A stretch of 64,000 bases of DNA from a virus. Where the stretch lies: IMG/VR virus record IMGVR_UViG_3300024999_000044, positions 1 through 64,000 of that record, one strand, 5' to 3'. Below are positions 4,347 through 5,382 of the stretch, piece by piece. The notes under the pieces were generated by a model, which ran no database searches, was not told where the DNA came from, and saw only the letters and a program-made list of their open reading frames with translations. Each line of letters starts with the position of its first letter. Position 1 is the first letter of the stretch. The position numbers and the translations under genes were made by a program.

Positions 4347-4982
4347 ATAGCATATGGGGTGGCGGAATAGGTAGAACGCTTTAGAGTGAACAAGTCGTGC
4401 AGGAAACCTTAATGGTACCATACCTGTTTAAGGTGGGGTAAGGGCCGATCACAAGGGTAAACCGAAAACTAGCAGGATATGTATGGTGCAAATCCATGCC
4501 CCCATTTTACATGCCGGAGTAGCTTTAATCCAAAAGCACATGCCTAAAAGCGTGAGGAATGCAGGTATAAAATCCTGTCTCTGGCCCCTTAATTCTACTT
4601 TAATCCCTGTGTGCTGTTTCTGGTTGGCTTATGATGAGCCATAGGGCCCAATGCCAGAGCTCATACTAAGGGCATGGACATCATCTTGGGATACGGCACA
4701 TGGGAATTAGGGTAGAAATAGGTATAAGACTAGCTTAATGATTGGGATGAAAGCTCAAGGGAGTAGTTCCATGTGCAGGTCGAATCTTATTTTCCTAACG
4801 GGGGGAGCATACCCTGCAAGAGAGTGCCGTTATTTTGGAGTGTTGGTAGTTCTGCATAGTTTCTAATACGTCACTTGAAACTATGATCCGCAAATAGCTA
4901 ATGTAGATAAATGGGAACTGCACGCAGTCAAGGCAACAGACTGGGGTTACAATGTGTTGCCAGTAGAGATAGGTTGTAGTTG

Positions 4983-5006
4983 GATCACTTAGTGCACTAA
5001 GTGATC
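4983..5006. repeat. 24-bp perfect palindrome GATCACTTAGTGCACTAAGTGATC inside a 1-kb noncoding region
   Basis: Read directly; immediately followed by a T-arm-like hairpin GTGGG-TGCAACT-CCCAC. Confidence 0.6.
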
Positions 5007-5382
5007 GTGGGTGCAACTCCCACCCTGTCTTTACCAGAGATTGTTGTACAATTCAGCAATTTGTGGTAGGGACAGAACAGCTCTGATCAAGCTACTATTC
5101 TTCCTTAGGGCTTACCGTTGTTCTTTAACGGTCGTATTGTTTAGGAGTTTTCAGTAGTGTTTAGAGAGTTTCTAATGTTAATGAAACTCTGGGTGTGATT
5201 TATAATTACACTCAATAACTACTGGGGTGGGTGGAGCACTTTGTGGGGCCATAAAAGAGCAGCCAGAACGTATGTTTACTGGTTGCCTTTTTAATTATTC
5301 ACCGAGTTACATGCAGAATAAGCAATAAGATATGCCTCCTCCAGATGTTTATTAACATTAAATCTGAAAGGGGGCTCTTATT

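Follow-up and report, generated by a model that had tools for sequence, protein, structure and literature searches.

Several RNAs that are shaped like a tRNA and do not decode are processed by tRNA enzymes, among them YrlA (RF02553), the mascRNA/MALAT1-type signals and RNAs C and D of phage T4 (species 1 and 2), which are stable, measure about 120-140 nt and are encoded in the tRNA cluster of that phage. RNase P and RNase Z, which recognise the acceptor/T-arm minihelix, act on tRNA-like structures as well, mascRNA being an example. GOLLD and ROOL are large (about 600-800 nt), highly structured RNAs of phages and prophages, found beside tRNA islands; GOLLD sometimes contains tRNAs, and one example lies downstream of a tRNA-Met (PMC12286853). 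Staphylococcus phage K, a member of the Herelleviridae, produces lnc001 and lnc002, abundant non-coding transcripts of 0.6-1.15 kb encoded beside tRNA genes, one of them directly downstream of a tRNA-Met and with a terminator at its end (PMC9241854).

The window analysed here is a 64,000-nt stretch of a viral record (IMGVR_UViG_3300024999_000044). Positions 4353-5297 of its plus strand are, as a whole and in all likelihood, best explained as a unit of non-coding RNA encoded by an SPO1-like phage (Herelleviridae), putatively processed by RNases. The unit, about 945 nt long, is composed of three modules, namely, element A, element B and a 3' domain of about 700 nt (Table 1). The genuine tRNA-Met upstream places the locus in a small tRNA island. 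The 88-aa gene that follows it has a single homologue, 83% identical and syntenic in a sister phage, and many of the nucleotide differences between the two copies appear, by eye and uncounted, to fall at third codon positions. Since its stop codon is located 6 nt upstream of element A, this gene and the RNA are probably co-transcribed, in a transcript that probably includes the tRNA-Met as well; no sigma-70-type promoter was detected just upstream of the unit.

Table 1. Features of the RNA locus and its surroundings (window coordinates; L003 is a record of the sister phage).
Feature	Position	Strand	Basis
tRNA-Met(CAU), CCA encoded	3982..4056	+	ARAGORN; Rfam tRNA 63.2 bits; upstream context
88-aa protein gene, no assigned role	4080..4346	+	ORF with RBS
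Element A, predicted tRNA-shaped RNA	4353..4508	+	Covariance model R1; covariation; pairing changes in sister phage
A, acceptor stem, 7 bp	4353-4359 with 4500-4506	+	
A, D-arm of tRNA-Leu type	4362-4379	+	
A, variable domain (about 100 nt) in place of anticodon arm	4380-4477	+	
A, candidate H-type pseudoknot	4399..4433	+	S1 GCAGG/CCUGU; S2 CCUUAA/UUAAGG
A, T-stem, 6 bp, preceded by AU, loop UGCAAAU	4481-4486/4494-4499	+	
Element B, degenerate cloverleaf	4513..4586	+	Rfam tRNA near threshold; comparison with sister phage
Long helix of about 22 bp with variable insert	4595..4715 (4595-4617 with 4693-4715)	+	Local MFE, both phages
9-bp hairpin CATAGTTTC/GAAACTATG	4855-4863/4877-4885	+	One two-sided U-A to C-G change in L003
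Perfect 24-nt palindrome; as RNA, 9-10-bp hairpin, apical GUGCAC	4983..5006	+	Shuffles; comparison with L003
T-loop-like hairpin GUGGG-UGCAACU-CCCAC	5007..5023	+	Weak Rfam Tymo_tRNA-like match, 22.7 bits (gathering score 40)
11-bp stem CUGUCUUUACC/GGUAGGGACAG, variable-length hairpin inside	5025..5075	+	MFE of both phages
Hairpin ACCGUU-loop-AACGGU	5114..5132	+	Invariant between window and sister phage
Three-way junction, closing stem CAGUAGU/ACUACUG	5152..5224	+	Comparison with sister phage
Terminator-like hairpin GCAGCCAG-12 nt-CUGGUUGC, then CUUUUUAAUU	5259..5297	+	Covarying in L003
Spacer with conserved RBS region AAAUCUGAAAGGGGGCU of 391-aa gene, outside the RNA	5298..5382	+	Alignment with L003

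An initial sequence-only reading of the interval had reported no convincing ORF. The longest ones are indeed 53 aa (plus strand) and 73 aa (minus strand), and the open frames are broken in the sister phage, where tblastn matches shift frames and both strands match equally. All the elements which that reading listed are present where it placed them, and of its two interpretations, that of non-coding or degenerate tRNA-like RNAs is upheld, whereas that of a packaging or replication cis-site is not. The flanking genes, which it took for structural-looking, have lost this description, since neither the 88-aa nor the 391-aa product is recognisably structural; the setting corresponds to the SPO1 gp33/gp34-ligase-helicase neighbourhood. 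The Infernal comparison with Rfam that it advocated placed no curated model over the RNA unit at the gathering threshold, element B falling just below the tRNA gathering score. No group I/II intron, RNase P RNA, T-box or riboswitch reached the gathering threshold anywhere in the window, and nothing relevant among introns, RNase P RNA, T-boxes and riboswitches was returned from positions 3900-5500 at E <=10. Antisense targets of at least 16 nt were not found elsewhere in the window. A role as an antisense regulator of a window gene was rejected, a single 14-mer match being present and about 0.5 being expected by chance (our own estimate).

With regard to element A, the class-II tRNA-like D-arm (TGGCGGAATAGGTAGAACGC, 4360-4379) and the first T-arm-like hairpin (GTATGG-TGCAAAT-CCATGC, 4481-4499) noticed in the sequence-only reading are both confirmed, and are the two ends of one predicted tRNA-shaped RNA. 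CCA is not encoded. In the window copy the D-loop is longer by one A and acceptor pair 1 is a U.U; the copy of the sister phage stays paired where G-C has become G.U and U.G has become C-G. The candidate pseudoknot inside A bears a palindrome, UGGUACCA, in its intervening loop; in L003, stem S1 has a single compensatory change, on both sides (GCAAG/CUUGU), and S2 is invariant. ARAGORN does not call A as a tRNA, its only call being the tRNA-Met, and the Rfam tRNA model (RF00005) returned no match to A at E <=10.

Judged by shared sequence features and covariation, element A belongs to a large family of predicted tRNA-shaped RNAs that phages of Gram-positive bacteria commonly carry and that is annotated almost nowhere. 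A scan with the pattern GGTGGCGGAA-N95-125-GGTGCAAATC matched at least 120 loci in genomes and at least 119 in IMG/VR, for which we estimate about 34 and 3 chance matches, respectively; 97 cultured-phage records were matched. Among the matches listed, full members occupy at least 138 viral or bacterial loci (114 distinct sequences), a perfect 6-bp T-stem is combined with a perfect 7-bp acceptor stem in 75 out of 116, and the discriminator base is not fixed (T 46, A 42, G 18, C 10). In an alignment of 92 non-redundant members, 97.1% of the cells are paired, compared with 78% in shuffles and 36% to 51% with slid partners. Two-sided changes amount to 287 cells versus 79 in shuffles, none of the 500 shuffles reaching the observed value. 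The excess of G.U/U.G cells (about 43) over A.C/C.A cells (about 6, own tally) indicates that the pairing operates at the RNA level and on the given strand. A covariance model, R1, built from 92 other members with the window left out, recovers element A over its full length (model positions 1-148 of 148; 79.6 bits, E = 9e-16), along with an orthologue (66.1 bits) and a paralogue (75.2 bits) in L003. Cultured carriers are Leuconostoc phage Ln-9 (87.7 bits), phi3T (82.6 bits), Enterococcus phage phiSHEF16 (78.1 bits), Listeria phage B054 (72.2 bits) and Bacillus phage SBSphiJ1 (72.0 bits).

Conserved across the family are the covarying 7-bp acceptor stem, U8-G9, the tRNA-Leu-like D-arm GCGGAAUAGGUAGACGC, the 6-bp T-stem and the UGCAAAU loop; in place of the anticodon arm there is a hypervariable structured domain of 80-110 nt, harbouring one to four hairpins without a common architecture. 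The window copy displays the acceptor stem, T-stem, UGCAAAU loop and D-arm GCGGAAUAGGUAGACGC, has an insert within 80-125 nt and lacks CCA. Family members lie on the same strand as adjoining tRNAs, or within head and packaging modules. One of them shares its island with ROOL, a tmRNA and 19 tRNAs, and the phiSHEF16 copy is found immediately 3' of the phage tmRNA. The family is not recognised by Rfam 15 or ARAGORN, and in GenBank records of well-studied phages the element is either blank or covered by short 'hypothetical protein' calls. A literature search with sequence strings and keywords did not find a description of it, although the family might figure in PMC10690425 as one of 10,006 unnamed candidates. 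An intron-containing tRNA was considered and rejected: ARAGORN, with introns allowed, calls no true member, and the two calls obtained correspond to a tRNA-Leu (L130) and an intron-bearing tRNA-Val (L185).

Element B, the near-threshold cloverleaf 3' of A, lends the degenerate-tRNA part of the initial reading its second support. It is built of a 7-bp acceptor stem, a D-loop without GG, a 6-nt 'anticodon' loop CUAAAA and an 8-nt T-loop UAUAAAAU, likewise without CCA. With the Rfam tRNA model (gathering score 29) the window copy obtains 28.2 bits and that of L003 29.4 bits, and ARAGORN makes no call. The two copies are about 97% identical, with a G.U to A-U change in the acceptor. As predicted from its sequence, element B cannot decode. 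One may ask whether A, B and the T-arm hairpin are then simply pseudogenised phage tRNAs of a decaying array, with neutral spacer for the remainder. The subthreshold score and non-canonical loops of B, the tRNA-Leu D-arm of A, the adjoining real tRNAs and the restriction of the locus to two lineages are all in keeping with decay. However, the features of A that depart from tRNAs (a G in position 55, a T-stem of 6 bp that follows YAU, and 100 nt standing in for the anticodon arm) recur, strongly covarying, in at least 92 members, non-redundant and found in very different phages, which points to a selected design and not to random decay. Moreover, the 3' domain folds far better than shuffles, and its helices and terminator are kept through compensatory changes. 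Decay is thus an unlikely account of the locus.

The fold of positions 4590-5300 reaches z = -7.1 on the plus strand and -4.9 on the minus strand when compared with shuffles. The plus-strand MFE amounts to -351 kcal/mol and that of the minus strand to -275 kcal/mol. A hand alignment with the sister phage comprises 25 helices and 155 pairs, of which 120 are invariant, about 15 are changed on one side and 17 on both sides with pairing kept, and three are broken; these helices were picked with both sequences already known. Since B and the 3' domain are present in two close lineages only, their covariation amounts to one pairwise comparison. An unbiased test combining MFE and MAFFT had no discriminating power, 52 of 122 changed pairs being canonical versus about 52 of 128 with slid partners.

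Several helices illustrate how the pairing is preserved. The insert of the long 4595-4715 helix forms two hairpins in the window and one in the sister phage, where it is 35 nt shorter; of seven changed pairs in this helix, five are kept as wobble or Watson-Crick pairs and two are broken. The hairpin with a 9-bp stem, initially assigned to 4852-4892, is verified within these limits. The second T-arm-like hairpin described at the outset (GTGGG-TGCAACT-CCCAC) exists too, but belongs to no tRNA; it is T-loop-like and lies inside the large 3' domain, and its loop reads UAGAAUU in L003, so that the first U and fifth A, corresponding to T-loop positions U54 and A58, are kept. The stem at 5025-5075, which shows one two-sided and one one-sided change with pairing kept in L003, competes with an alternative acceptor-like pairing between AGAUAGG (4968-4974) and CCUGUCU (5024-5030). 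Within the three-way junction, hairpin 1 is formed by AGAGUUUC/GAAACUCU and hairpin 2 by GGUGU/ACACU, the latter becoming GCAUG/CAUGC in L003 through four two-sided changes, and the closing stem has a G-C to G.U change.

Terminator-like features at 5259-5297 mark the predicted 3' end of the unit, as an 8-bp stem (5259-5266/5279-5286) is directly followed by the U-run CUUUUUAAUU, in the manner of an intrinsic terminator. L003 carries at the same place a 10-bp stem of other sequence (GGUAGCCAAG...CUUGGCUACC + UUGUUUAAUU), with five two-sided changes. A consensus scan missed this hairpin because its 11-12-nt loop exceeds 8 nt. The terminator-like hairpin lies on the same strand as the 391-aa gene and 85 nt upstream of its start codon, and the tRNA-like and T-loop motifs suggest a link with tRNA, so that the region could be imagined as a long cis-regulatory leader of that gene, an attenuator, riboswitch or T-box-like element acting through this hairpin. 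This is very improbable: as seen above, T-box and riboswitch models found no match at E <=10, and 950 nt far exceeds known leaders. L003 has an extra ORF of 78 aa between its terminator and the segment homologous to 5298-5382, ahead of the homologous gene, and A-family members turn up within tRNA arrays and in many gene neighbourhoods unrelated to one another.

As to the conservation across related phages that the initial reading had proposed to examine, the sister phage (L003-L010, from groundwater metagenomes) retains the unit at the syntenic position, between homologues of the flanking genes (84 aa and 236 aa there), with helices kept by compensatory changes. The 5' part of about 280 nt is 93% identical in its cleanest BLAST piece, and the rest has diverged and contains indels. 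This identity is close to that of the adjoining 88-aa gene and, taken alone, is no proof of selection. Neighbour-gene routes found the locus in two phage lineages only, and in four remoter SPO1-like relatives (an Exiguobacterium phage and L012-L014) there is no gap at the syntenic place. Searching 50,697 phage records by blastn with the region and two other non-coding stretches gave no match, six motifs taken from A, B and the 3' domain, scanned as exact strings against IMG/VR, had chance matches at most, and the sister lineage was the sole return of one metagenome scan. In these searches, element B and the 3' domain were seen in two closely related lineages only.

The presence of A might also be that of a tRNA-like cassette which is mobile (SINE-like, MITE-like or homing-associated) and was inserted in an existing lncRNA locus, with mobility in place of a function at the locus. 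In L003, a 22-nt direct repeat, TACCTTTAATTATGATACCAGG, stands on either side of the paralogue A' (4313-4452), and the window has the uninterrupted site without insert; the contexts of the family are very diverse, and members are sometimes in tandem. On the other hand, orthologous copies of A occupy the same place in both lineages and differ by structure-preserving changes, and covarying, non-identical acceptor stems are unlike termini recognised by a transposase. Mobility and function can, besides, coexist, and we give mobility as the sole explanation very little credence.

The perfect 24-bp palindrome at 4983-5006 is real, and exceeds chance, as an arm of 12 occurred in 1 of 200 window shuffles. 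The window contains seven further perfect palindromes, six of them longer, five of these with A-run/T-run ends and resembling bidirectional terminators. At the corresponding position, L003 has a different, imperfect stem, GUUGGCAGG/UCUACCAAC, in which six stem pairs are changed (five on both sides, one on one side), leaving one G.U and one mismatch. The apical AGUGCACU has stayed; the conserved GUGCAC loop sits atop a covarying stem. The palindrome is, as this replacement indicates, an RNA hairpin and no conserved DNA site. A DNA-level cis element (a pac or cos site, a replication origin or a protein-binding palindrome) is hardly credible, in spite of the perfection and rarity of the palindrome, its GATC sites and the location of some A-family members immediately before terminase genes or at genome termini, as in Ln-9: the palindrome is not conserved, stems across the region use G.U with the plus strand folding 76 kcal/mol better, the 3' end is a covarying terminator-like hairpin, acceptor stems vary by copy with compensation, unlike repeats recognised by proteins, and the neighbours are sigma-factor, Band_7, helicase and replication genes, with no terminase beside. 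Oligomerisation through kissing palindromic loops, in the manner of the homo-oligomeric 'ornate' RNAs (GOLLD, ROOL and OLE type), is not supported by the window, where the enrichment of loops with palindromic hexamers is not significant (two versus 1.4 expected, p = 0.41); L003 has four versus 1.2 expected (p = 0.03).

Returning to the three-module RNA unit, the best inference as to its fate is that A and B may be excised by RNase P and RNase Z and released as stable RNAs. The prerequisites of such substrates, an acceptor/T minihelix and no encoded CCA, are visible in the sequence. Host RNase P would cut at the 5' sides of A and B, and RNase Z, proposed because neither encodes CCA, at their 3' sides; Bacillus RNase Z acts on CCA-less precursors. 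Cleavage would detach the RNA from the upstream mRNA, free A and B as nuclease-resistant tRNA-shaped RNAs, and leave the 3' domain with a 5' end fixed near 4588. A-type RNAs would use the 'top half plus elbow' of a tRNA as a scaffold for processing and stability and the variable domain as the functional payload, the latter role being a guess since the interior has no common architecture.

We tentatively propose, as a possibility less likely than not, that A-type RNAs constitute a new functional class in which a tRNA-Leu 'top half plus elbow' scaffold carries a rapidly diversifying domain acting as decoy, inhibitor or specificity module, here fused to a 3' domain analogous to GOLLD and ROOL. 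If so, this domain may decoy or inhibit host tRNA-directed enzymes or defence nucleases, or confer specificity, and the family would represent a major unannotated part of the tRNA islands and late operons of Bacillota phages (phi3T, SBSphiJ, Listeria B054). It may bear on phage answers to tRNA-targeting immunity. As members are present in tractable phages (B. subtilis phi3T and SBSphiJ, and those of Listeria, Enterococcus and Leuconostoc), their function is directly testable. In annotation, a covariance model of the R1 kind would do away with spurious small ORFs and give content to intergenic regions that look 'empty'.

Compared with the systems described above, the 3' domain is, by context and size, a putative counterpart of GOLLD, ROOL and the phage K lncRNAs. 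As with some examples of GOLLD, the unit is downstream of a tRNA-Met and contains tRNA-like modules. The likeness to GOLLD and ROOL is one of context only, as neither model matches: GOLLD (RF01998) gave nothing on 3900-5500 at E <=10 with permissive filters, nor did ROOL (RF03087) in the window, although the same method scored ROOL at 348 bits in L104. The 3' domain also differs from them in having no detectable relatives outside the two lineages and no enrichment of palindromic loops in the window. The phage K lncRNAs share with it the phage family and, in one of the two, the tRNA-Met setting and the terminator end, but their loci have no A-family element, and direct relationship was rejected, with no sequence or covariance-model similarity.

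Element A itself resembles tmRNA in its acceptor and T-arm, in the replacement of the anticodon arm by a long insert with a pseudoknot candidate, and in its occurrence in phage tRNA islands. In contrast to tmRNA, its D-stem is a true one, its T-loop is non-canonical, CCA is lacking and the length is only about 155 nt; nor is there a conserved tag frame, a 1-nt indel breaking the frame in L003. A tmRNA identity was rejected: neither ARAGORN nor Rfam (RF00023 and permuted forms) found a match, and the window and L003 have different frames downstream of the pseudoknot candidate. Unlike YrlA, an RNA that ends at the anticodon side with its acceptor capped, A ends at the acceptor, and the YrlA model has no match in the window. 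A further likeness is to bacterial class II tRNA-Leu: the 5' 26 nt of A (G6-G7-U8-G9, the GCGG AAUAGGUAGA CGC D-arm and its 3-bp stem) are one base away from the matching stretch of E. coli tRNA-Leu, and the pattern scan also caught the real tRNA-Leu at L130. From tRNA-Leu it departs by the lack of an anticodon stem-loop, the UGCAAAU T-loop with G at 55, the variable discriminator and the 6-bp T-stem, which yields an acceptor/T stack of 13 bp. The combination of a conserved tRNA top half with a hypervariable domain recalls the engineered 'tRNA scaffold' used for stabilising recombinant RNAs, and the A family would add a further recurrent component to phage tRNA islands, beside tRNAs, tmRNAs, GOLLD and ROOL.

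The interval between the genes flanking the RNA unit (4353-5297, plus strand) contains no convincing ORF, as the sequence-only reading had noted, the longest frames reaching 53 aa on the plus strand and 73 aa on the minus strand. Conservation across related phages, suggested there as a check, was examined in L003, the main comparison copy from a sister phage lineage found in groundwater, where a homologous interval lies between orthologous genes and the reading frames are not kept. The cleanest BLAST piece (L009) gives 93% identity over the first ~280 nt of the unit, the middle has diverged from L003, with indels, and the last ~180 nt are ~82% identical. 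The fold energy reaches -351 kcal/mol on the plus strand vs -275 on the minus strand, with z = -7.1 and -4.9, respectively, for 4590-5300. In L003, the terminator-like hairpin has another stem sequence with its pairing retained, and a separate 78-aa ORF comes next. The unit is a plus-strand, non-coding, structured RNA, kept in the sister phage and bounded by a terminator-like hairpin; the comparison of the two lineages indicates that it is conserved as RNA, and neither as protein nor as DNA site.

The Rfam check, combined with ARAGORN, returned at gathering thresholds nothing beyond a tRNA-Met (3982-4056) just upstream of the unit. Permissive Rfam searches added a near-threshold tRNA-like match at 4513-4586 (28.2 bits vs a gathering score of 29) and a weak Tymovirus-TLS-like match at 4969-5036, with no match to GOLLD, ROOL, tmRNA, intron, RNase P, T-box or riboswitch models. 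All the elements pointed out earlier in the interval were found by sequence inspection (see table), including a perfect palindrome, whose arm length of 12 was reached by one of 200 window shuffles. A packaging or replication cis-site had been envisaged alongside ncRNAs or degenerate tRNAs, and the first of these readings loses ground in L003, where the palindrome sequence differs: a different 9-bp stem is found, in which five pairs carry changes on both sides, one pair is G.U and one position is mismatched, and the apical AGUGCACU is retained. Since this stem differs yet pairs, the palindrome is best read as an RNA hairpin, its perfection being incidental in the window phage, and appears to be the clearest case of compensatory change among the helices. 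Seven other perfect palindromes are present in the window, five of which carry A-run/T-run ends and look like bidirectional terminators.

Along the unit, 25 helices (155 pairs) were aligned by hand between the window and L003 on conserved anchors; 120 pairs were invariant, ~15 remained paired after a change on one side, 17 after changes on both sides, and three were broken. These helices were picked with both sequences already known, and in an unbiased test, using MFE pairs via a MAFFT alignment, the real structure was not distinguishable from slid controls, so that the evidence for the 3' domain is suggestive rather than statistical. Element B, ~97% identical to its L003 copy, cannot be a decoding tRNA. 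No relatives of it or of the 3' domain were detectable across ~2 Mb of loci holding family members, by motif scans of IMG/VR or by a metagenome scan.

Features of the RNA unit, of the window and of the phiSHEF16 locus
Feature	Position	Strand	Details	Basis
Class-II D-arm string	4360-4379			sequence
T-arm-like hairpin	4481-4499		loop TGCAAAT	sequence
Element B cloverleaf	4513-4586		7-bp acceptor stem, D-loop without GG, 6-nt 'anticodon' loop, 8-nt T-loop	
3' domain	~4590-5297		22-bp long helix with variable insert, several hairpins, T-loop-like hairpin, 11-bp long-range stem, three-way junction, terminator	
9-bp hairpin	4855-4885			sequence
Perfect palindrome	4983-5006		24 nt	sequence
T-arm-like hairpin	5007-5023		loop TGCAACT	sequence
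Terminator-like hairpin + U-run	5259-5297	+	3' end of unit	
Other perfect palindromes	6568-6595, 27196-27225, 30398-30429, 36259-36286, 37142-37173, 52818-52853		arms 14-18; 30398-30429 without A-run/T-run ends, unlike the other five	
phiSHEF16 (L286) tmRNA/A-family RNA and YrlA-like matches	2645-3125 and 4618-6019			

The ncRNA or degenerate-tRNA reading is borne out by element A, at the 5' start of the unit, which is a true member of a tRNA-shaped family that shows covariation. With nhmmer, a paralogue of the unit's first 150 nt was detected at L003 4313-4452, and a two-block pattern scan (D-arm and T-loop) was therefore carried out, yielding at least 120 loci in genomes and at least 119 in IMG/VR, of which we estimate ~34 and ~3, respectively, to be chance matches. 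Among the matches listed, complete elements are found at 138 loci (36 genomic, 102 viral), corresponding to 114 distinct sequences. They share an acceptor stem of 7 bp whose sequence varies, U8-G9, a D-arm GCGG-AAUAGGUAGA-CGC, one base off the corresponding E. coli tRNA-Leu stretch, a hypervariable interior of 80-110 nt with one to four hairpins and no common architecture (containing a GGUUCGAWUCC motif in some members), YAU, a T-stem of 6 bp bearing the loop UGCAAAU, and the 3' acceptor strand; CCA is absent and the discriminator base is not fixed. With one member as query, blastn against cultured phages retrieved 97 records (Listeria 27, Bacillus 25, Enterococcus 16, Leuconostoc 12, and others), and almost all the matches listed lack annotation under the matched stretch. 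The family was not recognised by Rfam at gathering thresholds in ten member loci, true members were not called by ARAGORN, even with introns allowed, and no description was found in the literature; it is widespread and apparently undescribed. Short 'hypothetical protein' ORFs overlap the 3' ends of A-family RNAs in phi3T (RNA 2500-2636, CDS phi3T_57 2606-2758) and Listeria B054 (RNA 2401-2532, gp75 2520-2654), and may be mis-calls.

Across 92 non-redundant members, 97.1% of the cells are paired, vs 78% in shuffles and 36-51% with slid partners, and 287 cells are changed on both sides vs 79 in shuffles, a value attained by none of 500 shuffles, which points to strong covariation. By our own tally, G.U cells outnumber A.C cells by ~43 to 6, and the constraint therefore acts on the RNA of this strand. 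The covariance model built from these members, with the window excluded, scored window 4353-4508 at 79.6 bits (E = 9e-16), the L003 orthologue at 66.1 and its paralogue at 75.2 bits, compared with 87.7 for Leuconostoc Ln-9, 82.6 for Bacillus phi3T, 78.1 for Enterococcus phiSHEF16, 72.2 for Listeria B054 and 72.0 for Bacillus SBSphiJ1.

About a third of the members have tRNAs within 500 nt, including same-strand tRNA arrays, and others lie in head/packaging modules by terminase, HNH, portal, scaffold, major head protein and late-regulator genes. In phiSHEF16, a phage tmRNA (130 bits) that lacks annotation ends on the base where the A-family RNA starts, the SBSphiJ1 element lies between unannotated tRNAs, and that of an Oscillospiraceae prophage shares one island with ROOL, tmRNA and 19 tRNAs. 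The phiSHEF16 tRNA array also contains three sub-threshold YrlA-like matches (47, 34 and 29 bits vs a gathering score of 69). Unusually long 'tRNA' matches at L100 6330-6447 (minus strand, 118 nt, 41.9 bits, 7 nt from a member) and L060 588-752 (plus strand, 165 nt, 35 bits, ~200 nt from a member) possibly represent additional tRNA-like RNAs that carry large inserts. At L003 4297-4497, the paralogue and a short GGCATATGCC hairpin lie between the copies of a 22-nt direct repeat (TACCTTTAATTATGATACCAGG), and the window carries a near-identical intact single copy (TCCTTAATTATGATACCAGG) without the insert; the pattern resembles insertion of a cassette accompanied by target duplication, and hints that the A module may be insertable as a cassette.

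The window is part of a ~141-kb metagenomic phage contig, assigned by gene content to the Herelleviridae (gp33/gp34-type sigma factor, ligase, 5'-3' exonuclease, UvrD helicase), its nearest isolate being Exiguobacterium phage vB_EalM-132. The arrangement of the RNA locus is common to one other lineage only, the groundwater phages L003-L010; in four remoter relatives the gene order is compact and the syntenic place has no gap. The genes on either side, previously described as structural-looking, encode instead 88-aa and 391-aa proteins of unassigned function, neither being a recognisable structural gene product. The 391-aa protein (5383-6558) has a repeated DYIPGLG-like motif and only 45% identity to its 236-aa orthologue, compared with 81-83% for neighbouring proteins; the gene directly after the RNA is fast-evolving. 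An 832-aa protein (9691-12189) is major-vault-protein-like because of its Pfam MVP_shoulder (1.8e-26) and Vault_3 matches; it and a separate Band_7/SPFH protein (2970-3869), two genes upstream of the RNA locus, are both kept in the sister phage. The UvrD-type helicase (12518-15769) contains an intein harbouring a LAGLIDADG homing endonuclease, absent from the 655-aa L003 orthologue. Two further conserved ORF-poor stretches lie upstream of the unit, at 1263-1959 (relatively G+C-rich; L003 3354-3802) and 2400-2830 (L003 4476-4870), separated by an HNH endonuclease ORF (1959-2399) in the window and by a HIRAN ORF and tRNA-Asp in L003. Neither had a match in Rfam or, by blastn, in phage records; in window 2670-2800, a canonical T-arm (GAAGTTAGGTTCGACTCCTA) occurs as two copies, together with an acceptor-like pairing GGGTAG/CTACCC.

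The acceptor/T minihelix serves as a recognition element for RNase P, and CCA-less precursors are cut by RNase Z. By extension from established tRNA processing, both enzymes could excise elements A and B, which would separate both from the mRNA upstream and define the 5' boundary of the 3' domain. Protection of the RNAs would come from the tRNA fold, and the hypervariable domain may be the working part of the A-type RNAs. No antisense target was found within the window, and the constancy expected for aminoacylation identity was not seen in the acceptor and discriminator of the family. Oligomerisation via palindromic loops, considered by analogy with GOLLD and ROOL (PMC12286853), was statistically unsupported.

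With regard to known systems, element A is similar in shape to the tRNA-like domain of tmRNA, to YrlA and to tRNA-Leu, and tests of membership placed it in none of the three. In phage K (L016), the lncRNA 3' part downstream of tRNA-Met (1133-1269, minus strand) reaches 43.4 bits with the Rfam model DUF3800-I, slightly below the gathering score of 44.2. While matching none of the models or sequences of GOLLD, ROOL and the phage K lncRNAs (PMC9241854), the RNA unit resembles them in context and size, and can be classed as a tRNA-island-associated phage ncRNA.
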